A DNA stretch of 27,843 nt. Source: a virus. Taxonomy: Duplodnaviria; Caudoviricetes. The notes under the pieces are model-generated. The model searched no databases. It was not told the origin of the DNA and saw only the letters and a list, made by a program, of their open reading frames with translations. The DNA lies in IMG/VR virus record IMGVR_UViG_3300030397_000179, positions 1 through 27,843 of that record; one strand, given 5' to 3'. Of the stretch, positions 1 to 27,843 are shown piece after piece. Each line of letters begins with the position of its first letter. Within the stretch, counting starts at the first letter, position 1. A program made the translations under genes and the position numbers.

Positions 1-379
1 GTGTTTGTTCGTTGTCTGGTTTACCATCACTCACTACAATGATTTTAATTCCGCAATCATCAGCAATTTTTACAAATTTAAGCGCATCCGTTAAATTAGT
101 TCCCCCATTTGCCGGTGACAATTTTCCATTTGGGCGAAATTCCACAAATGAGGCAAATTCAATCAATGCTATTTTGCCTTGATATTTACCCTGTAGCTTG
201 GTTAGATGATCTTGCGCCACATCCCAACGTGATTTACCGTTGCCAGCGTCATTTGTTTGCATGGAACCGCTAATGTCTACCAAAGCTACAAGGTCAACAT
301 TTAAAAATGTTTCAGCCAATGACATGTTATTTTTTTGTGCTAAATCCGACTGACTACCCAATATGCTTAAATTACTCAT
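1..379 (-). CDS. von Willebrand factor A (vWA) domain protein, partial (runs off the left edge)
   Basis: Not in the ORF track; translated by hand from the ATG at 379: MSNLSILGSQSDLAQKNNMSLAETFLNVDLVALVDISGSMQ...WGTNLTDAL...IIVVSDGKPDNEQT. It has the MIDAS DxSxS (DISGS), the conserved T (GTN) and hhhhSDG. Confidence 0.85.
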   Translation of the reverse strand, partial: MSNLSILGSQSDLAQKNNMSLAETFLNVDLVALVDISGSMQTNDAGNGKSRWDVAQDHLTKLQGKYQGKIALIEFASFVEFRPNGKLSPANGGTNLTDALKFVKIADDCGIKIIVVSDGKPDNEQT

Positions 380-683
380 CACTCATTCCTTGATTGACTT
401 GAATACTAAAGTTATATTGATAGTAGGGTAATGCCAACAAAAATCTTACAATTACTGCACCACATTGAACAGCTTCGATTTCTATATTATCAAGGTTACT
501 CTTTGTTGGTTCATAAATATTTTCTAGAATAGCTTGAGTTAGTTCACCGATTTCCTCTTGTATTATTGCTACTGCATGAACTGGATCGGTGGGCCAATTT
601 GGAAATTTGTTTAATGCACGAAGAAATTCGTCATTAATATTATTATATATACTTGCCCTATTAATATTTTTAGTCACACCCAT
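372..683 (-). CDS. MazG-like all-alpha nucleotide pyrophosphohydrolase domain protein
   Basis: IIQEEIGELTQAIL...IEIEAVQCGAV matches the EExGE...ExxQ/D pattern of MazG-like phage proteins. Confidence 0.6.
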   Translation of the reverse strand: MGVTKNINRASIYNNINDEFLRALNKFPNWPTDPVHAVAIIQEEIGELTQAILENIYEPTKSNLDNIEIEAVQCGAVIVRFLLALPYYQYNFSIQVNQGMSDE

Positions 684-1552
684 TCCCTCCTTAAGGAATT
701 AGTAGCCATATCCCAACTGGTGATTAAAGTTTTGCCCCCCTCTACAATGTCAACCCATTGATCGATCCGCTCTACCATAAATCGACCTACAGATTCGTGA
801 CCTGTACATAAAATATTTCCACACCGTACAGGGATTTGAAAATAGTTATTATTTTGGAATTGATTGTTATTCCGAGCCAATGAACCTTGTAGAGTTAAGC
901 CAGTATCATACTTTTTGCGCTTCATTGGATTCCGTAAAATGTTGTACGCCTCATTGATTTTGATGGTCATCTGTTCGGCGTCACTATCACTATTATGATC
1001 AGGATGATAGCGAAGTAGCATTTTACGCCATGCTTTTTTAATGTCTTTTTGATCAATGTTTTGCTGAATATTTAACAGTGTGTAGTAAGTGCTGATGTTT
1101 GGTGAATCCTTGCCGGTAAACCATTCTTTTAAAACCAATTCGGGAAAAACAACTGACCAGTTTAACCCACCAGGAATATAAGATATATCCATTCCATATT
1201 TGCGAGTGGTTTTTATTTCATGTACAACACCACCCAACGCTGATAATTCACCACCCCTATCTTTAATCGATCCAATATATTCAACCCGAATCATACGCTG
1301 TTCAGATGTTACGGCCGTTTTTTGTTGAATGCTTGAAATATCTAAATCAACCCCCAATTCATCTTTTACTAAATCACTCAAAATGTCTAGGTAATTCTTA
1401 TCAACAATCCAACATTTAAATTTGTTATCGACATAATGCGGTCGCCTTGCATTAGCTGGTATTTGTTGTTTCAGTCGATTGATTAGATAAGGGTCATAGC
1501 TGGAATAAAACTCCACACTAGAGCCACTATTTTTTACCCTTGCCCATTTCAT
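674..1552 (-). CDS. J-domain (DnaJ-like) protein with extra N- and C-terminal domains
   Basis: YYTLLNI...DIKKAWRKMLLRYHPDHN...INEAYNILRNPMKRKKYD is a canonical J-domain with an intact HPD motif. Confidence 0.9.
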   Translation of the reverse strand: MKWARVKNSGSSVEFYSSYDPYLINRLKQQIPANARRPHYVDNKFKCWIVDKNYLDILSDLVKDELGVDLDISSIQQKTAVTSEQRMIRVEYIGSIKDRGGELSALGGVVHEIKTTRKYGMDISYIPGGLNWSVVFPELVLKEWFTGKDSPNISTYYTLLNIQQNIDQKDIKKAWRKMLLRYHPDHNSDSDAEQMTIKINEAYNILRNPMKRKKYDTGLTLQGSLARNNNQFQNNNYFQIPVRCGNILCTGHESVGRFMVERIDQWVDIVEGGKTLITSWDMATNSLRREWV

Positions 1553-1715
1553 TTTTTATTCCATCAAGATTGCTGACAAAGAGAAATACAATACAAGTTA
1601 TCACATAAATAAGCACAATTTCCCATAGGTGATTACGCTCTATAGTAACTGCTATTAAAAAACCCGTAGAGTACGCCCAAAGTTCGTTAAATACATCCTT
1701 AATCAATCGTTTCAT
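1527..1715 (-). CDS. Small membrane protein
   Basis: 62 aa with hydrophobic segments; overlaps both neighbours in operon fashion. Confidence 0.55.
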   Translation of the reverse strand: MKRLIKDVFNELWAYSTGFLIAVTIERNHLWEIVLIYVITCIVFLFVSNLDGIKNEMGKGKK

Positions 1716-2428
1716 TTCATCCCACCTTTACACAATTCCCAAAACTCGCAATAGTTTGATGAGCATTTCCACGTAGTTGGATTAGGAACATGCTGCCCTG
1801 CCCTCATGGAGTCGGATACAACACCTATAAGGTTAAACAGCCCTAGTACATCTTCAACCGTTCGCCATGTTTCCAATACCTGTACATCAGGGTTTTTTGT
1901 TTTGGTGAAAATGTGATATTCAAACTTAATCGGAAAATCTGACGTTTGAATCATGCCCATTTTGTGCATGCCGGCAATGTAGAAAGTTGCTTGCAAATCT
2001 TTATCTGCTTGTGCCTGTGACCATTTGCGTTTGCTTGTTTTAAAATCAACTGGTGTGCCATCTTCTAAAATTGCATCAATATAACCAATAATGGGCAATT
2101 CACTCTGCGGGATTGTGAGCTCAAATTTTAATTCAGATTGTTTGATTTCAAGACCTTGTAGGTGTGCTTTAATTGGGGTTGATTCAGACATTCTAGATAG
2201 AGCGTGGTAGTTCTCTTCACTCTGCATAGAAGTGTCCAATGACTCAAGAAAGGCTTCATCGATCGGCTGTAGTGTACCAGCTACAAGGTTAATCATTTTA
2301 TGCCATGCCGAACCAAATAATAAAGCATCATTTTTTTCTGATTTAATTTGATCAATATAACGATACCTCCAATGACGTTGACACATCAAATAATTTTGAA
2401 TAGATGAGTATGACAGATGGTCAATCAT
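1712..2428 (-). CDS. PD-(D/E)XK exonuclease (RecB/AddB/Cas4-like, probable Fe-S cluster)
   Basis: HLSYSSI...C, GSAWH, GYIDA...VDFKT, QxxxY and C-terminal KCSSNYCEFWELC (one plus three Cys). The start was moved to the ATG at 2428 (AAGAGG SD, ATGA overlap with the upstream gene); the ORF is open to 2467. Confidence 0.88.
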   Translation of the reverse strand: MIDHLSYSSIQNYLMCQRHWRYRYIDQIKSEKNDALLFGSAWHKMINLVAGTLQPIDEAFLESLDTSMQSEENYHALSRMSESTPIKAHLQGLEIKQSELKFELTIPQSELPIIGYIDAILEDGTPVDFKTSKRKWSQAQADKDLQATFYIAGMHKMGMIQTSDFPIKFEYHIFTKTKNPDVQVLETWRTVEDVLGLFNLIGVVSDSMRAGQHVPNPTTWKCSSNYCEFWELCKGGMK

Positions 2429-2616
2429 TTCGGCCTCTTTTCCAAACCACTCTTCAACTGTTTCCATTTGTTATGTGTAATATATCTTCCTGTTGGCTCA
2501 TATCCGCTAATGTTTAACTTTGGTTTATCTTCAAACCAAGTCCATTTTTCAATGTCATTTAAAGCTAGCCAATTAGCCCATTCAGGCGCATCATTCCAAT
2601 TCGGTTTTTGGTTCAT
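2425..2616 (-). CDS. Small Trp-rich phage hypothetical protein
   Basis: PNWNDAPEWANWLA...WTWFEDKP; GGAGA SD before the ATG at 2616. Confidence 0.65.
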   Translation of the reverse strand: MNQKPNWNDAPEWANWLALNDIEKWTWFEDKPKLNISGYEPTGRYITHNKWKQLKSGLEKRPK

Positions 2617-3334
2617 AATTTTTCTCCAGATATACAACCATTTCTTCTATAGAACCATTCGTTTTGGAAGATGCTTCAAGAACATTGTCAGGATCATACT
2701 TTGCAATCAAGCTCTCCCATGTCGGTGAAATCTCACCTGTATCCTGATCAATAGTAACTACCTCGGACTGATTAGACATTTCACCACTGACATAGACTGA
2801 TTGCATAAAAATATCGGGGCAAAACCGCTTATAAGCTCGTGATGTCGCCCTATTGAGAAGCATATCAATAGGGTATTTTTTGTAATTCTCTTTATCCTGT
2901 AGTCCGGCCGCTTTGACATCATCCCAAGTGAATGAAGCTTTTCCAATTTCAACCATTTTGACAACATCTAGCTTTTTAACAAAATTTTTGTTTTCATCAT
3001 ATTCTAGCAATTCCGTTTTACCTAAAATTGTTATGATGCATTCTTTATCAGTCAACTTTTCAATGTGATAATCATAATCAGGATGCTTGCGTATTTGTGC
3101 CCGAATAACTGTCCCTTCCACCTCTACACGGCCATTCACTGTATACAAACCACCATTTACGGCAAGTGATAAAGGTAGATCGTTTTCAAAACAAAACAAT
3201 AGATGCTTTGCAATCTTGGCACGTTCTGTAACTGCTCTAGGCTCTACAGTTTCGCTTATTGCTCTGATCATATCCCAATTTGCGGGATTCATTTCACGTT
3301 GTGTGGTTAATTCATTCATCCGTTTCATTCCCAA
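2591..3334 (-). CDS. RecT/Red-beta-like single-strand annealing recombinase
   Basis: LYTVNGR...SFTWDDVKAAGL..KENYKKYPIDML..RATSRAYKRFCPD...VY..GEM resembles phage RecT-family motifs, and the gene lies near an exonuclease. The start may be 3328 or 3319. Confidence 0.7.
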   Translation of the reverse strand: MGMKRMNELTTQREMNPANWDMIRAISETVEPRAVTERAKIAKHLLFCFENDLPLSLAVNGGLYTVNGRVEVEGTVIRAQIRKHPDYDYHIEKLTDKECIITILGKTELLEYDENKNFVKKLDVVKMVEIGKASFTWDDVKAAGLQDKENYKKYPIDMLLNRATSRAYKRFCPDIFMQSVYVSGEMSNQSEVVTIDQDTGEISPTWESLIAKYDPDNVLEASSKTNGSIEEMVVYLEKNYEPKTELE

Positions 3335-3548
3335 CTTCTATATATTCAGCTATTCTATACCTAAAATTTGTCACTCTTTTTTCAAGGGAGATAAAGCTTT
3401 TTAACGTATGCGGATTCAACTTAGCTTTTATCAATTGATCTTTCGCATTAAACAAAGCTGTCTCAGCTTTAATTATATTTACTATTGCCAATTTTGTATG
3501 ATAGCTATCCATTATTACCATCCTCACTTGCAAAAAACAATCGACCAC
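3312..3548 (-). CDS. Hypothetical protein
   Basis: Fills the gap between the ERCC4 and RecT-like genes with overlaps; the real start is probably the ATG at 3512. Confidence 0.5.
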   Translation of the reverse strand: MVDCFLQVRMVIMDSYHTKLAIVNIIKAETALFNAKDQLIKAKLNPHTLKSFISLEKRVTNFRYRIAEYIEVGNETDE

Positions 3549-4209
3549 CCAAAGAGTTAATTATTTTTTCCTTTGTTTTATATCCAATTCCAGAAATATT
3601 TTTTGCTGTTAAATCTGTAAGCCATTCCAGGCCCTTACCTAAATTCCCGAATTCACTAGCAATCTTTTGCGCCTTATCTGAACCAATACCGTCAAACGCC
3701 ATATACACTTGCTCATGTGGGCTAAATACATACGATTGTCGCCTAGGTGCGACTTTTACATCATTGCGCGATCGATTTATAAGCCGTTCGACCGCTCCGT
3801 GAAAGTCGGGATCATAAACTACAGTACAGCCCATTTCTTGAATGGAAGTTAGGGAACCTTGTAGAGATGACCATTGCCAACCAGATAGATTTTTCTCCCC
3901 CCGATGCACCTCGTGAAGAAAGTGATCATCAAGAGGCTCAAACCAACCTTCAATCACAACATAACCCCACTCATTACCCTCTACAAGGTCATTCACCTGA
4001 TTAAACAATCGCCCATCTCGCAATGAGTCTAGATAATCACGTGGTGTTTTGCGCTCAATGTTCAGAATAGAGCCGTCAGGACATGATACCTGAAAATCGA
4101 AAGGTAGGGATTTTACAAGGCACAAAATACCCATTGCCTCAAATCGCTCTTTGTGTTCTGGATAGTGCGAGTGTTCATTGCTATCAATAGTTATTATTGT
4201 GCCTCGCAT
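3505..4209 (-). CDS. ERCC4 (XPF/Mus81-type) structure-specific nuclease with helix-hairpin-helix motifs
   Basis: IDSNE, DF, IERKTPRDYLDSLRDGRLFNQ, VVIEG; HhH-like FDGIGSDKA and ISGIGYKT. Confidence 0.9.
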   Translation of the reverse strand: MRGTIITIDSNEHSHYPEHKERFEAMGILCLVKSLPFDFQVSCPDGSILNIERKTPRDYLDSLRDGRLFNQVNDLVEGNEWGYVVIEGWFEPLDDHFLHEVHRGEKNLSGWQWSSLQGSLTSIQEMGCTVVYDPDFHGAVERLINRSRNDVKVAPRRQSYVFSPHEQVYMAFDGIGSDKAQKIASEFGNLGKGLEWLTDLTAKNISGIGYKTKEKIINSLGGRLFFASEDGNNG

Positions 4210-4218
4210 AATTATCTC

Positions 4219-4950
4219 CTACCAAGGCAATAAGTCTGGATTTGCTTTTAATGCAATTTCTTGCATTGCTGTATCCTCTAAATTGATATTTGCCAGCATA
4301 GGCATTTCTGACACTCTCTGGGCAAGTTCAGCATGATCCTTTGATTGTTTTGCTAATGTTTCAAGGAATGGGATTGCTTGCTCTAGTGAGATAGCTTCAA
4401 CTTTCTTTTCTTCGATTTTGGAACCTTGAGGCAATTCACCTTTATGTTCATCATAAGCCGCTTGACAATCATCTGCATTTTCAAAAACTTCTAACAGTTT
4501 GATACCACGGATAGGTTTTTCAACACCATCAGAGTTTTTGTATTTACGAATGACTGGCGTCTCATATTTGAAAAACCTCGACCCCTCTGTTAGGCCACGT
4601 AAAAATTCATTGATTTCTTGTCGTTTGTGCGGGTCATTGGGATCAACACCTAAAATTTCACCTGCCGAATTAAAGATTGATTTCCAATCGTCCGACCATA
4701 CAGGAGATTGATTTTTAAATGTCTCAAATTTTGCTCCAATAGGGAAATGTTGATACTCATAAACTACATGAACCCTCTTCCCATCCGCAATAATAGCTTT
4801 GTGTTCTTCATCATTTGAGTCAAATTCAACCCAATCTCGCACACCTGCCATACGGATACCCTGAAAACCGCGATAGATTACAAACTCACCAAAAAATACG
4901 TCACTTGGTGGTGCTGTTTCTTCTTTTCCAAATGGGTCAAAGTTAGTCAT
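4219..4950 (-). CDS. Hypothetical protein (acidic; possibly ssDNA-binding/recombination accessory)
   Basis: 243 aa ORF in the recombination operon; function inferred from context only. Confidence 0.5.
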   Translation of the reverse strand: MTNFDPFGKEETAPPSDVFFGEFVIYRGFQGIRMAGVRDWVEFDSNDEEHKAIIADGKRVHVVYEYQHFPIGAKFETFKNQSPVWSDDWKSIFNSAGEILGVDPNDPHKRQEINEFLRGLTEGSRFFKYETPVIRKYKNSDGVEKPIRGIKLLEVFENADDCQAAYDEHKGELPQGSKIEEKKVEAISLEQAIPFLETLAKQSKDHAELAQRVSEMPMLANINLEDTAMQEIALKANPDLLPW

Positions 4951-5140
4951 TATCTGCCACCTCCGCTAATTTATCGTTTAAGAATTCATATAAGTCCTGC
5001 CCAATTGCTGATGTCATTTTCCCGCTCGCACGAGCAAGAGACTTTAAATCAATAGTCGACGCTATGGTTAATTGGATAACTAAGGGGTCTTTCTGCAGTG
5101 GGTCAACTCTTTTACTTTTGATTTGTTTCACTTGAATCAT
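4943..5140 (-). CDS. Hypothetical protein
   Basis: 65 aa, overlaps both neighbours. Confidence 0.55.
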   Translation of the reverse strand: MIQVKQIKSKRVDPLQKDPLVIQLTIASTIDLKSLARASGKMTSAIGQDLYEFLNDKLAEVADND

Positions 5141-5351
5141 TTGTATCTTCCTTTTTGTCTTGAATTTCTGCCATCGTTAATTGGCGATTGACATGATTTT
5201 GATATTGCTGATCGCATTCATACCCAATAAATAGCCGATTAAGGATTACAGCACGCAAAGAAATATCCTTTTCGTTCGCTTCATTTTTAATCATTTCAGC
5301 TAAATTTGGGGGGATGCTCAAATTATAATTCCAGTTTCCATCATTTACCAT
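5112..5351 (-). CDS. Ribbon-helix-helix (Arc/CopG-like) DNA-binding protein
   Basis: NYNLSIPPNLAEMIKNEANEKDISLRAVILNRL fits the RHH strand-helix-helix pattern. It is the first gene after the promoter and has an AGGAG SD. Confidence 0.75.
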   Translation of the reverse strand: MVNDGNWNYNLSIPPNLAEMIKNEANEKDISLRAVILNRLFIGYECDQQYQNHVNRQLTMAEIQDKKEDTNDSSETNQK

Positions 5352-5372
5352 AAGTTTTCTCCTATCGTTTTA

Positions 5373-5400
5373 TATGTCATTTTAATACAAATATGACATA
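5373..5400. promoter_or_regulatory. Inverted-repeat operator TATGTCAT-N12-ATGACATA overlapping the promoter
   Basis: Perfect 8 bp arms at 5373-5380 and 5393-5400 bracket the -10 element. Confidence 0.65.
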
Positions 5401-5407
5401 CTGTCAA
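5379..5407 (-). promoter_or_regulatory. Sigma70-type promoter of the early/recombination operon
   Basis: Minus strand reads TTGACA (5407-5402), 17 bp, TAAAAT (5384-5379). Confidence 0.85.
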
Positions 5408-5432
5408 GCTGTAAACCTTAAATTTTTCCAAC

Positions 5433-5460
5433 AAAAAACCGCCTCACGTGGAAGCGGCTT
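5433..5460 (-). terminator. Rho-independent terminator ending the late operon
   Basis: Minus strand AAGCCGCTTC-CACGT-GAGGCGGTTTTTT, about 40 nt after the last tail gene. Confidence 0.8.
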
Positions 5461-5502
5461 AGTGGGTGATTGACCTACAAGATCAAACCATGAGCAATTC
5501 TA

Positions 5503-5928
5503 TTATATATAATATGCCAAAACGTACAAGGATATTCTTATTGTGTCATCGTATTCTATGTAAACATCGCCATTAGAATCACAGGGGACAATACCTTGTA
5601 GGCTAATCCATTCATCATGAGAATTACCATAACCTGTATAAGCCAGCATAGATGTACTGTCGCTAGATTGCTTCTTGATCTTTACGGCCGTTATTGTAGG
5701 ATCGATAATATCCATTCTGAGCATAACCGCTCTGATATTATCCGGTACGCCAAAATCGGCAGAGAGATCGATAATACCATCATCGGCAGTGCCCTTAGTT
5801 TCATCAAACCAATCTGTAAGATTTTCCAATCTTTCAAAATGCCACTGAGGGGTATCTTGGCTTTCTAGTTGCGACAATCTTTCTTCTAGATCTTTTACAA
5901 TTCGCTCAATTCTAGCTAATTCGCTCAC
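5503..5928 (-). CDS. Small tail-tip/fibre-associated protein
   Basis: N-terminal coiled coil then a beta-rich domain; last gene of the tail module. Confidence 0.55.
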   Translation of the reverse strand: MSELARIERIVKDLEERLSQLESQDTPQWHFERLENLTDWFDETKGTADDGIIDLSADFGVPDNIRAVMLRMDIIDPTITAVKIKKQSSDSTSMLAYTGYGNSHDEWISLQGIVPCDSNGDVYIEYDDTIRISLYVLAYYI

Positions 5929-7040
5929 AAATCAAGCTCCACTTTTGACGAAATTGTCTCACGCCCTGTGCCATCAACACGAATATGTACAGCCCTGATA
6001 ACAGTATTGGCCTGAAAACCGGCATGGGATATTGTTACCTTGTCACCAAAATCCCAGTCAACCCCATAGCGGAATGATGGAGTATCAATCATAGACCCCT
6101 GCAAAGTTATTTGTGGTCTAAATTTTGCTAGTTCAGATTGGCCAACATCGTTTAGGGACTCTGTATCATCTATATCGATAAACGTTGCGTTGCGAAACTT
6201 TTCCCGCCGCCCCCAGTAGGATTGCCCAGATCTCGCAGTGTCTTCGACCTCCTCTATATTCCTATTCGCACCTTCCCCTTTGCCCCCAACATAAATATAA
6301 GATGCAACATCAGACCAATCGTACTGTAAATCCACCTCTACAAGGTTCCCATTTTCAGTACTAAAAACAACAGGATTACCAGAACCACCTACAGAACGAT
6401 CAACTCCGATTTGATTTTTGAAAAATCTTGCTTCTAAATATGTATCAGATATAGGAATTATTCCCCAAAATATTTCTGTTCCTTGATTCTTGCTGGCTTG
6501 CTGGAATTTCTTTAATATCTGAAGGAGAGGTTTCCATGCAACTTTGGATTTTATATTTGCGCCAAAATCAAAGGCACTAGCTTCATCATAGTAATTCCCA
6601 CTAATATTCCGCACGTCAGGATTAGATCCAAATGATCCTAAATTTCTACCCAATGCAATTCTGATTGCTTGCCCTATTGAATAGTCGTATTCGCTATTTG
6701 AATGCTCACTAGAGAATGCATTTATTCGCCTTTCTGTTAATCCATTTGGGCCATGCCCTTCTGTAGAAAATTGACTACCCCCTCCTCGCATCGTACTGTA
6801 ATTAAACTTTTGCAAAAATGCCACAAAGTCTAACTTTAAACTACCCCCAATGGGCTGACGATAGACATGTATGCGCCTATCTACTTGATTTGTTTCCCAC
6901 AAAGAACCTTGTAGGGGTGTGTTGAGTGCAAGAAACCCGACATCACCAGCAACTTTTACATACTCAAATTGTGTGACATTGGTGATATTTGTGATCCGAT
7001 TTCCAAGATCATCAGCATACCAAAATTCGTAGTAAGTCAT
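5925..7040 (-). CDS. Siphovirus minor tail/baseplate hub protein (ReqiPepy6 Gp37-like)
   Basis: Follows Dit; motifs YVGGKGEGANR, WGRREKF and FRYGVDWDFGDKVT are typical of this family. Confidence 0.8.
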   Translation of the reverse strand: MTYYEFWYADDLGNRITNITNVTQFEYVKVAGDVGFLALNTPLQGSLWETNQVDRRIHVYRQPIGGSLKLDFVAFLQKFNYSTMRGGGSQFSTEGHGPNGLTERRINAFSSEHSNSEYDYSIGQAIRIALGRNLGSFGSNPDVRNISGNYYDEASAFDFGANIKSKVAWKPLLQILKKFQQASKNQGTEIFWGIIPISDTYLEARFFKNQIGVDRSVGGSGNPVVFSTENGNLVEVDLQYDWSDVASYIYVGGKGEGANRNIEEVEDTARSGQSYWGRREKFRNATFIDIDDTESLNDVGQSELAKFRPQITLQGSMIDTPSFRYGVDWDFGDKVTISHAGFQANTVIRAVHIRVDGTGRETISSKVELDL

Positions 7041-11016: not shown

Positions 11017-11237
11017 TATCTACCAGCCTCGTCATTTTTTGTTTTTTGCGCTCTAGCTTTTTCATCGTTCATCCATCTGTGACGATTCAACCACTGGTGT
11101 TCTGAAAACACAAACGGCGCAATTTCCCAAGGAGGACATCCCCAATCTTGCGCCGCTTCTAATATCATCACCCACCTTGGCACACTCGCTACACCATGAT
11201 AATAGTATTGATATAAATCACCCCTTACGCTTTTTTT
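11016..11237 (-). CDS. Tail assembly chaperone, -1 frameshift extension (lambda gpT-like)
   Basis: The -1 frame is open from the A8 run to a TAA overlapping the tape measure ATG: KKSVRGDLYQYYYHGVASVPRWVMILEAAQDWGCPPWEIAP...EAGR*. Confidence 0.75.
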   Translation of the reverse strand, partial: KKSVRGDLYQYYYHGVASVPRWVMILEAAQDWGCPPWEIAPFVFSEHQWLNRHRWMNDEKARAQKTKNDEAGR

Positions 11238-11533: not shown

Positions 11534-11691
11534 TTTTTCATTAACCTTTTTTTCTCTTCTTGATACTCCGCCGCCTGCTCAATAGTAATATTTTCAAAAT
11601 TCCCATAAGAAGCAAGTAATTTCTGACGCTCTACAAGATACTTTTTCTTACGATTTTTTTTCTTAATCTTCTTGATTTGAGACCTTAGCAT
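11515..11691 (-). CDS. Small basic hypothetical protein (58 aa)
   Basis: Hand-translated: MLRSQIKKIKKKNRKKKYLVERQKLLASYGNFENITIEQAAEYQEEKKRLMKKWQITE. It has an AAGG SD-like sequence and overlaps the chaperone start. Confidence 0.45.
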   Translation of the reverse strand: MLRSQIKKIKKKNRKKKYLVERQKLLASYGNFENITIEQAAEYQEEKKRLMKKWQITE

Positions 11692-11971: not shown

Positions 11972-11985
11972 CTCATTATTTGGCA

Positions 11986-17674: not shown

Positions 17675-17693
17675 AACATAATCCTATATGAAG

Positions 17694-19391: not shown

Positions 19392-19582
19392 TATTTAGCA
19401 TGTTTCCCAAAATCAGCCAATCCTTGACCAATAATATAAGCTACTACAGCCCACATGAACTCTGGCAAGACCTCTTTGTACTGCTCTAGATCTGGAATAG
19501 CAACTACCAGAACAGATACAATAACACCAAAGACCATCATCCAAAACTTTTTGCTAGTCAAGTATTCTTTTAAATTATCCAT
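19391..19582 (-). CDS. Probable holin
   Basis: 63 aa, two TM segments, LTSKKFW...AYIIGQGLAD; coupled to the endolysin gene. Confidence 0.8.
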   Translation of the reverse strand: MDNLKEYLTSKKFWMMVFGVIVSVLVVAIPDLEQYKEVLPEFMWAVVAYIIGQGLADFGKHAK

Positions 19583-19584
19583 TT

Positions 19585-20067
19585 TTATTCTCCTAATGGG
19601 TCTGTGCCCAATCGCGACGCCAATACATTATTATGTCTTTCTAGTTTTTCGTTTTGTCTCTCTAGATACAAAACTCTTTCTGCTAATTCAAGACGCTTTT
19701 GTGTTTCATTGCTCAATTTCTCATCAAGTTTTTTGACTTTTTTCTTTTCATCTTCAATGTCAGTTTTTAAACGCCTGTTTGCTATTTTGGCTTCACTTAA
19801 TTCCGCTCTCATCATTTCTATTGTATCAAGAGCAGAGCCATATTTTTTAAACTCGCGCGATAATTTTTCTTCAAGTCTATCCGCTCTATTGTCGCAATCA
19901 TCTATTTGCTTGCTAAGTTCACCCAAGAGATAGGACTTAGTTTTTTCTGCTTGTCGATTAAGGGTAAACCACAATACAGGGACTGACAAAATACTAGCAA
20001 GAAAGACGACGAGTAATATTATAAAAGATGCGGAGTTTAGATCCATGACTAAAACTCCATAAAGCAA
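19585..20067 (-). CDS. Membrane-anchored coiled-coil protein (lysis-associated?)
   Basis: N-terminal TM helix then about 110 aa of heptad repeats; directly upstream of the holin. Confidence 0.6.
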   Translation of the reverse strand: MLYGVLVMDLNSASFIILLVVFLASILSVPVLWFTLNRQAEKTKSYLLGELSKQIDDCDNRADRLEEKLSREFKKYGSALDTIEMMRAELSEAKIANRRLKTDIEDEKKKVKKLDEKLSNETQKRLELAERVLYLERQNEKLERHNNVLASRLGTDPLGE

Positions 20068-22226
20068 TCGCAGTTGTACCCCTTACAAGCTAAATTTCTT
20101 GATTGGGGGTAAAAACCCACTTGCGCCAATGATAGCCATTCAGATTTTGAAGATTTACGGCCGTTAAACCGTAAGCAATCTTCGCAATGCTCCTCTGTGT
20201 TCCCAAGCCTCCAAGTCAGTTCCTCCTCACGTCTACCAACAATTAAACCGCGATTGAAAAACAACCTTGCAGCGTTTGCCCACATCAAAACACGACTAGC
20301 AATAGACCCGCCCTGATCATCTTGTATATTTTCTATAGTCGCCTTTTGTGAAAAAATAGAATCAACAAAACCTTGTAGGTGGGACAACTCTTCTGTTAAT
20401 AGTGATTCAAGCTCAACCAATTCATCTTCTGTGAAATCTTCATCTAAATCGATGCCTACAGCCTCGCGATATATAGATTCCAATTCGTCAGATACCACTG
20501 ATTCAAATTCATCTCTAAAGCCATCTTGCCCCATAGATTTTGCCCCATCTACAAGGTCAACTAATTTTTGGGTGTAGTCCTCTAGTAAATCATCTATCAA
20601 TGCCTTGCGTCTAGGTGCATTTTTAAAAGCAATGTCTAATTTATTTTCCCTGGTGAGATAATGAGAGTCAAAATCGTTTATATCTATTTGCTCATAGTTT
20701 CGCGCTTTTAGCCATCTAATATACTGGTTTTTTTCATCCCGCATATCTAATAAATCTAAAAACTTTTGCTTAGAATCGTTCTCCTGTGCGTTTTCTAGTA
20801 CTTCTCTTTGAGCAACGGCGTTTGTGTCGGTCTGGATTGGCTTATCTACCTTTTCTGGAATGAGCCTTTTTGCTACATCTGGGTTAACACCAAGGAATGC
20901 ATCATACATATTGATAGCATTATCACGGGTGATAACATTCTCCCCAAAAGTATTAATAATCTTTAGTGCTGATTCAATTTGAATGCCGTTCAGCAGTGTT
21001 TTTTCTTCTCCAATATCATCACTTCCCAAAATATCCAATTGATCTTTTATGACTTCTTCCTTCAATTCCTTTGGAATATGAAGTCCTAGCATGTTTTCTA
21101 TTTCTTTTTTCGCATACCCAACATCGAAATAGTTCTTTGCAGCTTGGCTGCGTTCAACTTCATCAGTTTGCATGACTCGCAATTGTTGAGGTAAAGCAAC
21201 AATAGAATAGCCCATTGGATTTAATTTTTGTTCGTTCAGGTCTGCATAAATCCATCCGGTTTCAGGAATAATTGTTTCTTCAATATACCCTCTATCATCT
21301 CCATCTTTAGTAGCACGGTTAACGCCCTCTGGTAAAAGTTTAGATAGTGGCACACCTAAACCAACGGCGATATCCTTTTTCTCATCTTGACTCAAAACAT
21401 TATCGCGTAAATCTTTTACACCTTCTCCAATCTCAAGAGTTTCAAAGTCGCCGCGAATAACCTCGGTAGCATGTGCATTACTCACACCAGAAAACACCCG
21501 TTTCCACCACTCCTTAATACGTGGCACCTCACTTGGTTTAATCCCATCCTTGTACTTCAGCAATGTGGCCTTGATTAGGCCACGATTAAAATAACCTTGT
21601 AGAAATAAATCCAGTGCGCCAACAACACCAGCGTTTTGAAATACAGCTTTGGCAGGATAGTTTTTTGCCCTCCCAATTTCTACCGCATGATCGGGGTACC
21701 AAAAGTAAAGGACATCCTCAATTTCCAACTCTCTTGGTACTGCGTTTGGTGGCTCATCACGCCAAAACCCAAGTAATTCACCATAAGGTTGCATCGAATC
21801 AGTTCGCAATCCCCCTCTGCCAACAATACCGTTTAAAATAGGATGAACTGACCAAGGTAAGTACCAGCGCAAGGGCATGTCACCGCCTAACACATTTTTC
21901 CTTTGAGAGAGGTATGCCTCTCCGCCCAATATGGAAGCGACTTCAATTGATCCTGAAAAGCGAGGCCATTTAAGAATCCACTCTAATTCTTTTGGTGGGG
22001 TATTCTGAGGTGTTACACCGTCATATTCATAAACAACAGATTCGCCTTTGCGGATCTCAAAAGGCATAGCGGCAACACTGTTCCCTCGAATATTTACGCA
22101 ACGATACAACCAAGCAATTGTGGAATAAAGATGATTGATATCAACATCGCTATCGTTATCAGAGTGAATAGTCCAAACTTCTTCAGGAAAATTTGGAGCG
22201 CCTAGCGATTTTATCCTTATAGTCAT
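20049..22226 (-). CDS. Portal protein with C-terminal minor-head (Mu gpF-like) domain
   Basis: WLYRCVNIRGNSVAAMPF, YFNRG, IAVGLGVPLSKL and NRAT are HK97-type portal motifs. The C-terminus has LTWRLGNTEEHCEDC...LACKGYNCDC. Confidence 0.85.
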   Translation of the reverse strand: MTIRIKSLGAPNFPEEVWTIHSDNDSDVDINHLYSTIAWLYRCVNIRGNSVAAMPFEIRKGESVVYEYDGVTPQNTPPKELEWILKWPRFSGSIEVASILGGEAYLSQRKNVLGGDMPLRWYLPWSVHPILNGIVGRGGLRTDSMQPYGELLGFWRDEPPNAVPRELEIEDVLYFWYPDHAVEIGRAKNYPAKAVFQNAGVVGALDLFLQGYFNRGLIKATLLKYKDGIKPSEVPRIKEWWKRVFSGVSNAHATEVIRGDFETLEIGEGVKDLRDNVLSQDEKKDIAVGLGVPLSKLLPEGVNRATKDGDDRGYIEETIIPETGWIYADLNEQKLNPMGYSIVALPQQLRVMQTDEVERSQAAKNYFDVGYAKKEIENMLGLHIPKELKEEVIKDQLDILGSDDIGEEKTLLNGIQIESALKIINTFGENVITRDNAINMYDAFLGVNPDVAKRLIPEKVDKPIQTDTNAVAQREVLENAQENDSKQKFLDLLDMRDEKNQYIRWLKARNYEQIDINDFDSHYLTRENKLDIAFKNAPRRKALIDDLLEDYTQKLVDLVDGAKSMGQDGFRDEFESVVSDELESIYREAVGIDLDEDFTEDELVELESLLTEELSHLQGFVDSIFSQKATIENIQDDQGGSIASRVLMWANAARLFFNRGLIVGRREEELTWRLGNTEEHCEDCLRFNGRKSSKSEWLSLAQVGFYPQSRNLACKGYNCDCFMEF

Positions 22227-22559
22227 TTAATTTACCATATCAATATAGAGAACGGCATACCAAGCATCACCATCAATAGTGAAACTAAACACCATCTTAT
22301 ATCGCTTTCCCGCAGTAGCGGCGCTTGCAACAAATTTAGAAGAAGTAAAGACGCCCGATGAAATACTAGGCGACCCTGTTAACAGCGATCCTGCTAAATC
22401 ACTACCAAAGGTGCCATCAGATTGACGCAAATGGATGGTATTCGCCTCATCTGCATAAGTCCCTGATGGAACATTGTTAGTCAAAGTGAATTCGTAAGAA
22501 TACCCTTCCCCGATATGACGCTCCACTGGGGATTCTTTTAGCTCAATTTTACTAGGCAT
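22227..22559 (-). CDS. Hypothetical virion-associated protein
   Basis: 110 aa, beta-rich, in the structural cluster. Confidence 0.6.
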   Translation of the reverse strand: MPSKIELKESPVERHIGEGYSYEFTLTNNVPSGTYADEANTIHLRQSDGTFGSDLAGSLLTGSPSISSGVFTSSKFVASAATAGKRYKMVFSFTIDGDAWYAVLYIDMVN

Positions 22560-23264
22560 TTAGCCACCAGAACTAACAGTCAATTCATAAGTGAATTCAA
22601 TCGAATCGCCATTTACAACATTAATAGCTGAGAACACGTGGCGATCCATTAACTCACCAGATGTTGAAGCATTGAATAATCCATGCTCTGTAATTGCTTT
22701 TGTGGTCGTGTAAGAAATTGTACCAACTGAGCGGTAAATGTTTGCTGATGCGCCCTCAGTTTGTGTACCAGTTGCACGGGATTCGCCATCAGTTGTTTCA
22801 ATATCAGTGTCACCAATAGCGGCGGCAGTTGTACCCACTCCTGAATCATGAAATTTAAAATCCCCCCAAGTTGAGTCCTCTGTCTGGAGTTGATCAACCA
22901 TTTCATTGACAAACGCAGTGGTGACTACGCGACGCTCGACAACGCCATAATTTACCCACTGCCCAAATTGTCTCGCCCAATCCAGCGCGTTTCGCTCATC
23001 TTCATATTGCATCAACTTGAACATTTCACGCTGACTTTCAGTCAGTCGCAAAACACGAATTGATAATTGACTTGTCAATGTGGGAATACCAAACAGTTTT
23101 GAAACACCCCTTGCACTCCAATTCCCAATCAAACCCTGCCAATACGCGAAACGCAGTCTATTTTTCAATCGCCACGACAAAGGAGCATCAATATGTTTCT
23201 CTAATTTACTAGCTACAAGGTTGCCCTCAAATGCAGTATTACTATTTATAGATAAATTACCCAT
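22560..23264 (-). CDS. Probable virion structural protein (fibre-base-like)
   Basis: GVGTTAAAIGDT...ITEHGLFNASTSG.LMDRHVFSAINVVNGDSIEFTYELT resembles fibre-anchoring domains. GAGGTGG SD before the ATG at 23264 (ORF open to 23327). Confidence 0.65.
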   Translation of the reverse strand: MGNLSINSNTAFEGNLVASKLEKHIDAPLSWRLKNRLRFAYWQGLIGNWSARGVSKLFGIPTLTSQLSIRVLRLTESQREMFKLMQYEDERNALDWARQFGQWVNYGVVERRVVTTAFVNEMVDQLQTEDSTWGDFKFHDSGVGTTAAAIGDTDIETTDGESRATGTQTEGASANIYRSVGTISYTTTKAITEHGLFNASTSGELMDRHVFSAINVVNGDSIEFTYELTVSSGG

Positions 23265-23472
23265 TATCCACCTCGCGAATATTAGAGACAAAATCAATAT
23301 CAAACAATTCGCCACTCCACCCATCAATCTCTATAGTAAGAGTTTCGCCACTTTTTAAAATAACACCAGATGGAACAATGAACCCAGCGCGATTATTCCC
23401 ATTATCTTGACGGAATTCAACGGGGATTGTTTTCCCATTCTTTTTAACCTCAACAGATTTAATATTCATCAA
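23257..23472 (-). CDS. Hypothetical protein
   Basis: 71 aa, overlaps both neighbours. Confidence 0.55.
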   Translation of the reverse strand: MMNIKSVEVKKNGKTIPVEFRQDNGNNRAGFIVPSGVILKSGETLTIEIDGWSGELFDIDFVSNIREVDNG

Positions 23473-24953
23473 TCTCTATCCTTTAAATTCAATATATTAG
23501 TACGCTTACGCATAGTCAATATATTAGTACGTTTAAATAATGTCAATACCCTGGATGTTACAACACCTACACCGGCTTGCAACTCTGTAGCCAAAGAGCC
23601 AGCAAACGAGATGGCCCCAACAAGTATTTTTTTTGTCTTTAATGCCAACCCCCCAACAAAAGAAAGCGAACCTTGTAGAGTTACCGGTATCTTATAGTTG
23701 GCGATTCCGCTTAGGGAAAGTATCCCAGATATCGCCTTACTAGCAAAACTCACAAGAGTACCAGGGAGTGACAGTACACCCCCTAACGATTTCCCAACTT
23801 TTTGAACCAGCCCGCCAGCAAACGAGATAGCCCCACTAATTGAGGTTGTAAACACAATTTTTTGTGAAGATGTGCCAATAGATGAAAGCACGCCGGTAAC
23901 AGATAGGGCGGCCCCCTTGATTAAATCACCCGAGAAGCTAATAGCACCTACAAGGTTATATTGAATTTTTCTGATAACAGATCCCGTAAATGACAACGAT
24001 CCATCAACTAACTTTTGGGTTTTGTTTACCAAGCTACCACCAAACGACAAGACACCTGCAATAGATTGCGTGAATACAATTTGTTGAGACAGAGTGCCAC
24101 CAAGCGATAAGACCCCAGATAAAACTTTAAACACTCCCTCACTCAGACCTCCTAAAAAGGATACCGTGCCAGAAGAAATTTTTTGGGTATTTCGTGAAAT
24201 AGCCCCACTACTTGATAGTACCCCCGCCAATGCTCTCGTTAATTTATTTACCAGAACCCCAGATGTTGACAAAGTACCTACAAGATTTGATAGTATTTTT
24301 AATACCACTGCCCCAATAAATGACAACGATCCTGTATAAGTTACGGCCGTTTTTTTGCCCACAGCCCCACTTGTTGATAATGACCCTGCTGTTGACTGGT
24401 TGTAAGTGGTTCCTCCCGATTCGGTCCACTCAATATAAAGATCAGCAGGATCGTCCCCGCTGTCTTCTGAATTAACCCTAAATGTTTTTGTTGCATTTGA
24501 TTTTGGTGTAAAAATAACCATTACACCTGCGCCACTTGCTAAGCCCTCATGAGTATCTATTAGATCTTGCATAGGGGTGACAAGCGATGGAGAATTAACA
24601 GGACTTGCCCCTAATCCATCTTGAGTCCAATTAACATTGTTTCCTGTTAGTGTTCGTGTTGATATCTCGGCTGTAGTTGTGAAGTCATCACAATCTGCGC
24701 TATCCTCGAAGTCAAGATCTCCATTAACGTCATCAGCGCCAGTTGAATCAGGATCAAGCGTGATATAGCAAGTATCGATTGTGGCACCATCAGGGATCGC
24801 GCTTGTTAGTTCAAAATAGAATCCACCTCTAAACCTTGCCCCGTTTACGGTGGCATGGTCATCCATTCTGACAATACTATTTGTATCATTGAAAGATGAT
24901 CCTGTAATATTTTCATGAGCATCTTCAATAACATTTAACGTTTGATTAGGCAT
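23469..24953 (-). CDS. Fibre-like protein: acidic N-terminal globular domain plus about 15 GxhSxxG repeats
   Basis: 18-20 aa repeats such as AGSLSTSG, TGSLSFIG and VGAISFSG. The N-terminal domain ends PADLYIEWT, resembling DNRLRE-like adhesin domains. Confidence 0.7.
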   Translation of the reverse strand: MPNQTLNVIEDAHENITGSSFNDTNSIVRMDDHATVNGARFRGGFYFELTSAIPDGATIDTCYITLDPDSTGADDVNGDLDFEDSADCDDFTTTAEISTRTLTGNNVNWTQDGLGASPVNSPSLVTPMQDLIDTHEGLASGAGVMVIFTPKSNATKTFRVNSEDSGDDPADLYIEWTESGGTTYNQSTAGSLSTSGAVGKKTAVTYTGSLSFIGAVVLKILSNLVGTLSTSGVLVNKLTRALAGVLSSSGAISRNTQKISSGTVSFLGGLSEGVFKVLSGVLSLGGTLSQQIVFTQSIAGVLSFGGSLVNKTQKLVDGSLSFTGSVIRKIQYNLVGAISFSGDLIKGAALSVTGVLSSIGTSSQKIVFTTSISGAISFAGGLVQKVGKSLGGVLSLPGTLVSFASKAISGILSLSGIANYKIPVTLQGSLSFVGGLALKTKKILVGAISFAGSLATELQAGVGVVTSRVLTLFKRTNILTMRKRTNILNLKDRD

Positions 24954-24956
24954 AGT

Positions 24957-25055
24957 TTAATTTAAAGCAAAAACAAAAAACAAGACACCAACAAGTGCAA
25001 CAATACTAGAAACCAAAGCCACAAGTGCCCACTTCATTTCATCATCCATGTTCAT
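24957..25055 (-). CDS. 32 aa single-TM peptide
   Basis: Hand-translated: MNMDDEMKWALVALVSSIVALVGVLFFVFALN. TAATG overlap with the terL stop; fills the gap to the next gene. Confidence 0.55.
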   Translation of the reverse strand: MNMDDEMKWALVALVSSIVALVGVLFFVFALN

Positions 25056-26299
25056 TATAAGAATGCTGGTTGATAACTGGTGATGGCATGAGTCATTAGT
25101 GCCCGAGCTATCACCGTGTCATCATGCACACCACTTGGTGCGTTATATATCGGTCTACCTAAATGATTAACTTTCATTTCATACGCCTCTGCCTCTGCCG
25201 TTGCAATAGGAATATTCAAGTATTGCATTTCTGTACGCTCATAAACAAGTTTTTGATTTTCTATAATCATGACCTTGCTTTGGTGAGTAGTCGCAAAACC
25301 TTGTAGGGGGTATCCCTCATTCTGTAGCACTTCTAGGTTAGGCTCTCCTATACTGTTTAGTTCTGCCAAACCATCAGCCACGCCCCAATAATTCAGCAAT
25401 TTCCCTATACGATCACGTTGATATATATAATCGATTTTATTAAATCTGTCCAGCGCGACCTCGCATTTGCAATCCATGCACCCAATAGAAACCACCGTGT
25501 AATCCTTATGCTTCCCCCAATCAATGCCCGCGACTAGCGTATGACCCTCATGATCTTTGGGTTCAGCATCTATAGGAGCATTCAAACATGCGCCAATGTT
25601 ACGGAATACAGCCCCCTCGTTATCGAGAAAGTTGGCCATGATCTCTTGACTATAATCATCCTCAGTCATATCTTCAGATATCTCTTCGAGCGCTTCTTGA
25701 CTTAAATAGGGGTTATCGTGACTAGTAAATTTAAAGGATTCGTACCTTTCATCCCCTCGATCTAGGCCACGCACATAGAGAGAGTGGAAGTGATTTTTAC
25801 GGTTGGGGGTTGATATAAACCACGCCTCCCCATTGGTATCCAGCATCATAGGAGCCCCTACAACATCCCAAACGTCCGGTTTCATAAAAGCATATTCGTC
25901 AAAAATAAGGATGTCACCCCAACCACCGCGCCATGTGTCCGCATCGTAAGCCGTTTGTGCCGAGATAATGGCCCCACTGTCCTGATCCTTCTCATGCATC
26001 CATTTGATATATTTTTCAGTTTCATTTTTGTAAATATGGCCCGACTGTATAAGAGGTTTTAGATATTCCTTGATCTTGCCCCAATATTGAGATAGCTGCT
26101 TTGACACAGGGGTGCCGTAAATTATCCTATGGCCCATCAAGAATTTTTGCACACTATACGAACTAAGGATCGTAGTTTTTCCCGCACGTCTACCAGCGCA
26201 GACAATTTTACGCTTAGATTCACTGTCAAGTATCAAGCGTTGTTTTTGATGGGGGGTAGGTAATGTTATGTCTATGTCCACATAAGGATAATAACACAA
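25055..26299 (-). CDS. terL: Terminase large subunit
   Basis: Walker A CAGRRAGKTT, Walker B LIFDE, coupling motif ISTP, nuclease GIDWG and HDDTVIA. The start may be the GTG at 26281. Confidence 0.95.
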   Translation of the reverse strand: MCYYPYVDIDITLPTPHQKQRLILDSESKRKIVCAGRRAGKTTILSSYSVQKFLMGHRIIYGTPVSKQLSQYWGKIKEYLKPLIQSGHIYKNETEKYIKWMHEKDQDSGAIISAQTAYDADTWRGGWGDILIFDEYAFMKPDVWDVVGAPMMLDTNGEAWFISTPNRKNHFHSLYVRGLDRGDERYESFKFTSHDNPYLSQEALEEISEDMTEDDYSQEIMANFLDNEGAVFRNIGACLNAPIDAEPKDHEGHTLVAGIDWGKHKDYTVVSIGCMDCKCEVALDRFNKIDYIYQRDRIGKLLNYWGVADGLAELNSIGEPNLEVLQNEGYPLQGFATTHQSKVMIIENQKLVYERTEMQYLNIPIATAEAEAYEMKVNHLGRPIYNAPSGVHDDTVIARALMTHAITSYQPAFL

Positions 26300-26324
26300 A
26301 ACCCCCTGCTATTTGCAAGGGGCC
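26293..26324 (-). terminator. Intrinsic terminator immediately upstream of terL
   Basis: Minus strand GGCCCCTTGC-AAATA-GCAGGGGGTTTTGTGTT. Confidence 0.6.
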
Positions 26325-26382
26325 TGTTACAAAGGAGGAACTTCTTGTGTGTCTCATGAGGAGGAGGTGCAGATGCACCATC

Positions 26383-26411
26383 AGTGTAAACCGTCCCGAG
26401 TTATATGTCAA
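26383..26411 (-). promoter_or_regulatory. Candidate late promoter
   Basis: Minus strand TTGACA (26411-26406), 17 bp, TACACT (26388-26383). Confidence 0.6.
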
Positions 26412-26454
26412 GGTGGTGTGTAGTGGTGGTGTGCAGTCGAGTGATGTACACTAC

Positions 26455-26658
26455 TTAGTAATGGGGTGGGGGGTGCTTTAACACATAATCAACGGGATGG
26501 GGGATTGGACCTTCCCGTATTGTATGCCCCCTATCTTCATATTCCCCATCGATGGTCAAGCGGAATGCATGCAGAAACTCACAATCCAAACAAACCATTT
26601 GAACCTCATCTTGAGATACCCTTTTGAGATAATACTTGTGTGCAGGTCGAGTGTACAC
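26455..26658 (-). CDS. Small hypothetical protein with CxxC and several His
   Basis: 67 aa, VCLDCEF; GTG start directly after the upstream stop. Confidence 0.5.
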   Translation of the reverse strand: MYTRPAHKYYLKRVSQDEVQMVCLDCEFLHAFRLTIDGEYEDRGHTIREGPIPHPVDYVLKHPPPHY

Positions 26659-26659
26659 G

Positions 26660-26812
26660 TTACCCCTTCAGACGCTTTCTAAGTTTCGATAAGATACCCG
26701 TGCCCTTCTCTTCTTTGTTCGTGCGCGTAACTATTGGATCTCGCTTCGGTTGACCCATTTCTTTTACAATTTTCTTGAAATATTCTCGTTTATTTTCTTC
26801 TCTTTGTGGCAT
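26660..26812 (-). CDS. Small basic hypothetical protein (50 aa)
   Basis: Hand-translated: MPQREENKREYFKKIVKEMGQPKRDPIVTRTNKEEKGTGILSKLRKRLKG; GAGGT SD. Confidence 0.55.
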   Translation of the reverse strand: MPQREENKREYFKKIVKEMGQPKRDPIVTRTNKEEKGTGILSKLRKRLKG

Positions 26813-26815
26813 AAT

Positions 26816-27250
26816 TTACCTCTTCAATTCCAAAGATATTGCATCGATAATCTCTCTATTATAAATAATTGATTGATTAGATTGAAAAACAGGAAGAATA
26901 GACAATCCAAATAATACCTTTTTTAACTTTTTTCTGCCTATATCAAAATGAGTCATCAATGCCCCAAAGCTAATAAAAAGGTCAGACTTTGGAAAAATTT
27001 TATTATATTCTGGTTGATATAAAGTTATATACATCGCTTCAAAATTGTTCAACTCATTTGAATCAACTTCTAAAAAATAATATGAATCAAAATCTTTATC
27101 TCGCGCATGAGCATGTATACGCTCAACCATATTTTTTGATTGTCCCACATAAACAACACTATTATCTTTAATTAAAAAATATATACCGCATAATTGAGAG
27201 TACCCACATTTGTTTTCAATGATCTTGTCTAGCCCTATCACTTTAACCAT
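26816..27250 (-). CDS. GIY-YIG nuclease
   Basis: GIYFLIKDNSVVYVGQS..MVERIHAH...E...YQPEYN. Confidence 0.88.
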   Translation of the reverse strand: MVKVIGLDKIIENKCGYSQLCGIYFLIKDNSVVYVGQSKNMVERIHAHARDKDFDSYYFLEVDSNELNNFEAMYITLYQPEYNKIFPKSDLFISFGALMTHFDIGRKKLKKVLFGLSILPVFQSNQSIIYNREIIDAISLELKR

Positions 27251-27843
27251 CCCACAGCCTTTATACGGCCGCTTTCCGTTATCACAGGTACGCTATTCTT
27301 TGTTTCATTTTTGTGAAGCAGTCCAATGGCCTTTAGTTGCGCTACAAGGATTTGATAATTATCATCTGACCAGCCCCTTTGCCGAGCCTGCCGCAAACTA
27401 AACTCTACCCTGTCATTCTCCAGGCAATCCTTGAGCCAATGTCTAAATGCATTTGGGCTTGGCTGGCTAATAACTTGAGTACCGAGTCCATTGCGCAAAT
27501 TTAACGTAACAGTATTTTGATGATAAACGGCCGTTTCTTTTTTAGGCTCACGATAGACAATTTTCTCACCAATACCATCTACAAGGTTAACCCATTCGAT
27601 AGCACGCTCTTTTAATGAATAGACTATGCCCACGCCTGCTATGCCAAGTCCAGCCACAAAAGAAAAAAAAAGAGTGTCAATCATAGGGATATTCAGCGAG
27701 TGTAAAATCGCCATGCTCAAAGATGCCCCTACGAGGAAACATCCCCATGAAAACCTTGTAGAGTAACCCCATACAAAGTCAATGTAGCTAACTGGTAACG
27801 GCCGTTTATTCACTTGCGCTGGACTATCGGATATTGTTCTCAT
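27238..27843 (-). CDS. Membrane protein with two TM segments and a soluble C-terminal domain
   Basis: Hydrophobic stretches at about aa 33-52 and 57-77. The ORF begins at the window edge, so the start is uncertain. Confidence 0.6.
   Translation of the reverse strand: MRTISDSPAQVNKRPLPVSYIDFVWGYSTRFSWGCFLVGASLSMAILHSLNIPMIDTLFFSFVAGLGIAGVGIVYSLKERAIEWVNLVDGIGEKIVYREPKKETAVYHQNTVTLNLRNGLGTQVISQPSPNAFRHWLKDCLENDRVEFSLRQARQRGWSDDNYQILVAQLKAIGLLHKNETKNSVPVITESGRIKAVGWLK

Follow-up and report, generated by a model that had tools for sequence, protein, structure and literature searches.

The window analyzed here covers 27,843 bases from the genome of a tailed phage (Caudoviricetes; IMG/VR record IMGVR_UViG_3300030397_000179). 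It contained part of a replication and recombination module, followed by siphovirus structural and lysis genes, and the 9-base word ACCTTGTAG recurred on both strands along nearly its whole length (Table 1). The word is real and specific to the phage. We propose, with a probability of about 70%, that its copies are the start sites of the phage's own primase, a predicted Prim-Pol (AEP) protein with a DnaG-type CHC2 zinc finger that would be encoded just left of the window.

ACCTTGTAG was present in 29 exact copies between positions 286 and 27761 (16 forward and 13 reverse), as had been counted in an earlier note on this DNA. The mean in 100 dinucleotide shuffles was 0.08 (maximum 1), and an order-2 Markov model predicted 0.19 copies, in agreement with the 0.2 estimated in that note. 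There were 16 one-mismatch copies, namely the 13 listed previously and three more at 1825, 13033, and 14379. The base 5' of the word was A in 21 of 29 copies, and the base 3' of it was A (12), G (12), or C (5) and never T, as already described. The 36 called open reading frames (ORFs) contained 25 copies, versus 0.97 expected (maximum 5) in 200 synonymous-codon shuffles. The coding count rises to 26 of 29 because the copy at 286 falls in the cut-off vWA frame (1-379). The 25 ORF copies were read as LQG (13), [N/D/Y]LV (10), and xTR (2), which are the readings reported earlier, and the shuffling upheld the accompanying claim that the DNA word and not the peptide is favored. Selection at the peptide level was ruled out by this result together with conserved peptides that lacked the word in the related phage G001, and a tandem repeat or mobile element as the source was ruled out by flanks that were different at each copy. 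Repressor "stoperators" keep one orientation relative to transcription; this explanation was rejected, as 10 ORF copies lay on the coding strand and 15 on the template strand. A contig from run X1 continued 6.6 kb to the left of the window and had another copy in the first letters beyond the edge, and contigs from three runs of one study, possibly the source of this DNA, showed a single variant base; no RNA run with the sequence was listed.

Among the relatives identified by the tail tube protein, only G001 (locus L036, 57% identical) carried the word, in the form RCCTTGTAG (34 copies in 26.8 kb). The word was not present in capsid relatives of 37-44% identity, the terminase query found no relatives, and G001 alone was word-rich in two scans of viral contigs for paired words (19 and 49 loci). 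The tail tube of P0006 was 74% identical to that of the window. Alignment of homologous proteins, which the earlier note had recommended, revealed that motif positions do turn over: in 17 homologous gene pairs of the window and G001, five word positions were common and the rest had changed. This turnover sometimes altered amino acids (LHG to LQG, VRG to LQG, and SIV to SLV), and the conserved peptides YLVG and TAV were spelled with the word in just one of the two phages. Between G417 and G421, 35 of 49 word sites were kept, compared with a background of 26% for all 7-mers, and site conservation reached P<0.05 in seven of the 12 genome pairs tested.

The plus-strand copies were evenly spaced, with gaps of 1224-3163 bases (coefficient of variation 0.30, P about 1e-4 versus random placement), and the minus-strand copies had gaps of 735-5589 bases (0.60, P 0.04). 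None of the 11 pairs of copies less than 700 bases apart in the window lay on the same strand (P 7.5e-4). The two strands of the window therefore each carry their own series of words. Two pairs faced each other closely (Table 1), and no terminator was called at the pair at 11891/11927. In five phages with CCTTGT words, all 12 pairs less than 100 bases apart, two of which are one repeat, were arranged as word then reverse word and none in the opposite order (about 4.5 expected for each). These facing pairs are reminiscent of the priming sites of RSF1010.

Table 1. Words and genes in the 27,843-base window.
Feature	Position	Strand	Remarks
ACCTTGTAG, 16 copies	884, 2153, 3856, 5593, 6906, 9130, 10552, 11891, 13634, 15037, 18200, 20370, 21594, 23670, 25298, 27753	+	span 884..27761
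ACCTTGTAG, 13 copies	286, 2281, 3981, 6338, 11927, 13109, 15111, 16555, 17368, 20549, 23213, 23948, 27579	-	span 286..27587
Variant GCCTTGTAG in distal tail gene	8771..8779	+	relative G001 has the word at the matching position
Facing pair: word, 27-base spacer, reverse word	11891..11935	both	intergenic, follows tail tube gene; candidate module for priming in both directions
Second facing pair, 65-base spacer	15037..15119	both	
ACGGCCGT, 11 copies	1311, 5684, 9431, 12935, 16506, 18274, 19024, 20157, 24343, 27527, 27798		palindrome, span 1311..27805
vWA-domain gene, cut by left edge of window	1..379	-	homologue precedes Prim-Pol/zinc-finger gene by ~0.1-4 kb in G407, G408, L362
DnaJ-domain gene of replication/recombination module	674..1552	-	PF00226; 45-46% identity to G407, G408, L362
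PD-(D/E)XK exonuclease	1712..2467	-	
Putative single-strand annealing protein	2591..3334	-	weak PHROG 561 match; closest copies in L362, G408, G407
ERCC4-domain nuclease	3505..4209	-	two word sites (3856, 3981), both common to G001
Gene without Pfam family	4219..4950	-	among loci compared, only in window, G001, G407, G408, L362
Siphovirus structural and lysis genes (terminase, portal, amidase, capsid, tail tube, tape measure, distal tail)	5925..26299	-	hold most ACCTTGTAG copies
Free-standing GIY-YIG gene, upstream of terminase	26816-27250		

The word belonged to a family with several dialects, including CCTTGTAK, CCTTGTTG, CTCAGTAT, and GCCGGTA. Phages found through the ERCC4 gene carried other words, such as GACCTTGTAT in G407, CCCTTGTTGC in G408, and CTCAGTA(T) or GCCGGTA in others. 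In G407 and G408, downstream of the vWA gene lay a gene (27394-28257 in G407) whose 280-residue product combined a Prim-Pol domain with a CHC2 zinc finger. Locus L362 (G683:C53) contained the module of the window, after which came the primase gene at 8925-9749 and a D5 helicase; its 17.3 kb held 26 CCTTGTA sites, many of which read GCCTTGTAG. A scan with the primase protein alone yielded 64 loci; together with earlier records, 63 full-length copies formed 44 clusters at 90% identity, all of which had intact catalytic motifs, as did G407, G408, and L362 (this region lies outside the window and the G001 fragment). A family word was found at P<1e-4 in 35 of the 44 clusters, and in 28 of these it was CTCAGTA. 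This dialect, which like CCTTGTA, CCTTGTT, and GCCGGTA was known before the scan, was present in 20 of the 32 clusters that were new in it. Among loci of at least 8 kb, 33 of 40 primase phages had a family word versus 2 of 111 control loci from four sets that were not dereplicated (1/59, 0/10, 1/13 for Prim-Pols without the finger, and 0/29). A full-length primase gene was found in none of the records of 32 tail-tube relatives, including the G001 fragment (two matches were to the finger only), and in none of the seven complete ones.

Another gene of the module (the ERCC4 nuclease, the vWA or DnaJ-domain protein, or the helicase) might read the word instead, for example as a site-specific nickase or resolvase, and these genes do accompany the primase in most loci. 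However, G423 and G412 held the vWA, DnaJ, and ERCC4 genes without a family word, the helicase was of either the D5 or the VapE type among word-bearing phages, and the dialect appeared to track the zinc finger. This alternative thus appears improbable. G423 had a primase of the NrS-1 type with a helix bundle (L287:1213-3582, L265), and its word was TGTGGWCA (40 copies), which contains GTGG and also resembles a DnaA box. Under codon shuffling, no clear word was detected in G745-G749 or G412.

The primase matched both pRN1 ORF904 and the zinc-binding domain of DnaG in sequence and in predicted fold, and its residues D84, D86, and H115 were invariant. Its C-terminal domain was a CHC2 finger homologous to the zinc-binding domain of DnaG and not the helix bundle of the pRN1/NrS-1-type Prim-Pols. 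The protein family had 584 representatives at E<1e-30, which are not all necessarily full-length. Fusions of AEP domains to zinc-binding domains have been noted in general (PMC5862659). In the profile alignment, "r-f-g-C" of the finger fell on "I-F-H-C" of 1d0q, and 2au3 was also a homologous zinc-binding domain. Counted from L37 and D42 of PMC2978363, the aligned pair corresponds to Ile56/Cys57 of Staphylococcus aureus DnaG, the exchange of which switches the start trinucleotide of that enzyme (PMC2978363). The pair was [ILMV]-C in 28 of 29 clusters with CTC dialects (V-G in the other), R-[FY] in 4 of 4 proteins with CC dialects, and L-F in 2 of 2 proteins with GCC dialects. Furthermore, 80 columns were conserved in the CTC group, and the five that changed in both other lineages all lay in the finger, which holds 28 of the 80 (P 0.004); one of the five matched Cys57. 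These comparisons suggest that the dialect may shift with the position in the finger by which DnaG specificity is determined.

Related prophages were found in records of Anaerolineales, Chloroflexia, and Chloroflexales, among others. The genome sets below are samples of a phylum, a class, and a family. RCCTTGTAG was not enriched in any of 401 genomes from the phylum to which G002 belongs, where it reached at most about 23 per Mb versus 1080-1270 in the phage of the window and G001. CCTTGTAK was below its control in all five genomes of the likely host family, compared with more than 1000 per Mb in phages, and it was at background in the host genome of L362. RCTCAGTAT likewise did not rise above background in 121 genomes from the class that includes G005. 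No CRISPR array was found at three short matches in 160 host-family genomes. The earlier note had offered a host DNA-uptake signal as one explanation, and the phage words do resemble the DNA uptake sequence (DUS) in their length and density, in having dialects and a flank bias, and in forming inverted pairs (PMC3630211). However, DUS occur in thousands per host genome, and none of the 401, 5, or 121 candidate hosts was enriched, so that this explanation is largely refuted.

The window also contained the palindrome ACGGCCGT, with 11 copies versus 0.18 under codon shuffling. The earlier note had held that its proposal would fail if enrichment vanished under a codon-shuffled null or if many unrelated words were equally enriched; the enrichment of ACCTTGTAG stood, and one unrelated word, ACGGCCGT, was strongly enriched too and had been missed. 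In the family that includes G256, presumably the Promineifilaceae, 52 of 81 genomes had at least 1000 copies of ACGGCCGT (up to 14,148), and G683, a genome of this family, had 7867. G601, G605, G633, and G652 carried TGCCGGCA in its place. These tallies include seven unpublished genomes (G179, G278, G350, G044, G151, G233, and G616), and no claim depends on them. Phages G407 and G408 had ACGGCCGT, and G001 did not. With hundreds to thousands of chromosomal copies per Mb, the palindrome ACGGCCGT is a word of the host family similar to HIP1 (highly iterated palindrome 1), separate from the primase word, which is neither palindromic nor chromosomal. No report of this palindrome in this group was found in open-licence PMC and bioRxiv text, supplements aside. 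Together, the two words separate a phage-made from a host-made mark and point to a host family.

The sequence following the word was also distinctive. The eight bases 3' of CTCAGTA were G-rich (0.37 versus 0.22-0.28 farther out; 624 sites, with coding, template, and intergenic sites alike), and the same tail was observed at 153 CCTTGTA sites (0.33-0.42 versus 0.18-0.24), as well as in L362. No such tail was seen at 138 chance sites in control phages. The word thus had a directional, strand-specific context, as reflected in the one-sided tail and the absence of close pairs on a shared strand. A polar site similar to Chi, which would halt the host helicase-nuclease and protect linear phage DNA, could account for this directionality, the G-rich flank, and the per-strand spacing in the window, and phages can over-represent Chi (PMC3784561). 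On the other hand, Chi is abundant in the host chromosome and these words were not; the same paper ties an excess of Chi to phages lacking a recombinase, whereas the window encodes an exonuclease and a putative annealing protein; and phages with the common ACGGCCGT host mark used different dialects. We consider a Chi-like role highly improbable. The words might also be a self-mark of an asymmetric methyltransferase or defense system, as the earlier note had suggested, or a mutational by-product of such a system, given that HIPs are tied to methyltransferases (PMC4390886) and that G408 has a helicase-methylase gene. However, no methylase was found among the listed genes of the near-complete G407 (its ORFs were inspected, and only seven of them were scanned), and methylation gives no reason for the one-sided tail, the facing pairs, or the link to the primase gene, which makes this origin very improbable. 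The broader proposal of a sequence-recognition system was supported, and among its options a binding site for a phage protein fits, with the evidence pointing to the phage primase, which that note had not named.

On our preferred reading, the primase would recognize ACCTTGTAG on the single-stranded template, and selection would write a site into each strand every 1-2.5 kb, about the length of an Okazaki fragment, even at the cost of amino acid changes. Selection would have to install these sites because a site of 8-9 bases is too rare by chance. With less certainty, the template would be the CTACAAGGT strand, which is favored because it begins with CTA, a DnaG start, and because the tail would equal a purine-led primer of about 10 bases. 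CTA is a start trinucleotide that DnaG reads from the middle base (PMC2978363). The finger would read the 5' trinucleotide of this strand (CTA in the window and ATA in most dialects), to which CAAGGT would be an extension. The primer would copy about eight C-rich bases 5' of CTACAAGGT, yielding an AG-led, G-rich product identical to the tail. The opposite strand may instead be the template, as its GTA core and G/T flank resemble GTC and the preferred flanks of the T7 primase (PMC6136900). Primers from the two words of a facing pair would run across one another, and such pairs could act as origins; residue changes at beta-4 of the finger would shift the dialect.

The same protein could bind the word for a selected function other than routine Okazaki priming, namely to restart forks, to load the helicase, or to act at origins alone. 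Every link between gene and word would fit such a role equally well, as would the uneven density in G407, the weak regularity outside the window, and the occurrence of words on both strands. However, a one-sided tail of primer length and a density of about one site in every 1-2.5 kb of each strand exceed the needs of an origin, and we regard this role as unlikely.

Several observations weigh against start sites of the phage primase. The primase gene lies outside both the window and the G001 fragment, and its link to them is presumed from synteny with G407, G408, and L362. In most loci the primase is accompanied by the vWA, DnaJ, and ERCC4 genes, so that G423 and the incomplete G412 are the only cases in which these occur apart from it. 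A family word was not found in nine of the 44 clusters, five of which had 60-64% GC, and L322 and L328 kept the I-C pair without a family word even when fuller records were included. Four of the eight core words were picked after the data had been seen. Even spacing per strand was strong in the window only (in 38 strand sets from 19 other phages, the combined P was 0.009 and five sets were below 0.05), and the gaps between words in G407 reached several kb. In five of the 12 genome pairs, site conservation did not reach significance or aligned sites were few or absent. The link between residues and dialects is graded as suggestive because it draws on two lineages and a quick tree. The dialect of G408 lacked a CTA or ATA start and fitted the opposite strand better. 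Furthermore, characterized primases read 3-4 bases, and the 8-mer of NrS-1 is weaker than GTGG (PMC8718748).

In a wider and more tentative sense, to which we give slightly less than even odds, a family of Chloroflexota phages may replicate through a chimeric primase that needs a site of 8-10 bases and a defined primer, with genes rewritten to place the site every 1-2 kb on both strands, and enzyme and genome may co-evolve into private dialects. If so, a code that relates zinc-finger residues to the specificity of the primase could be read from genomes alone, and phages with mismatched dialects would exchange gene modules more slowly. Primase sites as such are already known; what would be new is that long sites are spread through the genome in dialects that go with a chimeric primase. 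No paper on ACCTTGTAG-family words, on Prim-Pol with CHC2, or on genome-wide long phage primase sites was found in open-licence PMC and bioRxiv text, supplements aside. The choice of primase start sites in genomes is poorly known, and in these phages the sites seem to be written out in full. The 35 enzyme-word pairs in hand permit direct tests of zinc-finger specificity, and the family is a candidate source of site-specific primases and a putative example of replication signals that alter protein sequence.

Additional features were observed in these phages. The DnaJ-domain gene and a stand-alone vWA gene adjoined in nearly all of the replication modules. In L362, a frame with the ERCC4 gene (13782-14924) opened with a long HG/QG repeat. 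Two regions of G407 (3.6-8.1 kb and 12.3-17.8 kb) had no words and held structural genes unrelated to those of the window; these may be recent modules that have not yet been rewritten. At one position of the primase, G408 (11508) read PCC and had its own word there, and the homologues P0153, P0155, and P0159 read PCR, which is encodable by CCTTGTAG. GATC occurred 17 times in 20 kb of L036 versus 100 times in the window, which suggests restriction avoidance. L142, a metagenome contig and tail-tube relative, contained 20 copies of RACGCGTY in 21 kb and many CGGCCG, possibly another host palindrome. The mutually related phage contigs L017, L019, L021, L025, L033, and L034, which are unrelated to the window, had CCTCTTCAG 6-9 times per 11-15 kb, and the high-GC phages L205, L208, L209, L204, L216, and L239 had repeated short hairpins from CCTTGTAGAG...CTCTACAAGG.

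Several known systems share features with the words described here. Similar to ACCTTGTAG, the DUS of Neisseria and the uptake signal sequence (USS) of Pasteurellaceae have 9-10 bases, a density of about 1 per kb on both strands, dialects, and a tripeptide bias; in contrast, the phage words were not in candidate host chromosomes, were confined to phages with one primase type, and repelled each other on the same strand in the window. Chi in lambdoid phages is likewise a polar word over-represented in a phage genome, but ACCTTGTAG is not a host chromosomal word and follows a phage gene. Cyanobacterial HIP1 and ACGGCCGT are both 8-base palindromes that pervade a bacterial family, reach about 2 copies per kb, and give way to another palindrome in some members; they differ in sequence and phylum. 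The zinc-binding domain of DnaG and T7 gp4 (CTA/TTA, CTG, and GTC) is homologous to that of this family (1d0q and 2au3), and the beta-4 position at which the specificity of DnaG can be switched (PMC2978363) appeared to change with the dialect. Flank composition matters for the T7 primase, the GTC of which occurs every 30 bases with few copies used (PMC6136900). However, the catalytic domain of this family is AEP and not TOPRIM, its finger is C-terminal, and the known sites of DnaG and T7 are 3-mers that are already common by chance. The Prim-Pols of pRN1 ORF904 (GTG) and NrS-1 (GTGG/GTGA and TTTGGTTA) have the same catalytic fold; they start at specific sequences and make the primer beside the site, and GTGG is a shown site of NrS-1 (PMC8718748). 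These enzymes use a helix-bundle domain, whereas the enzymes of this family have a CHC2 finger of the DnaG type, with the helicase encoded separately, and, unlike the sites of pRN1 and NrS-1, the word of this family has 7-10 bases and occurs genome-wide at about 1 per kb.

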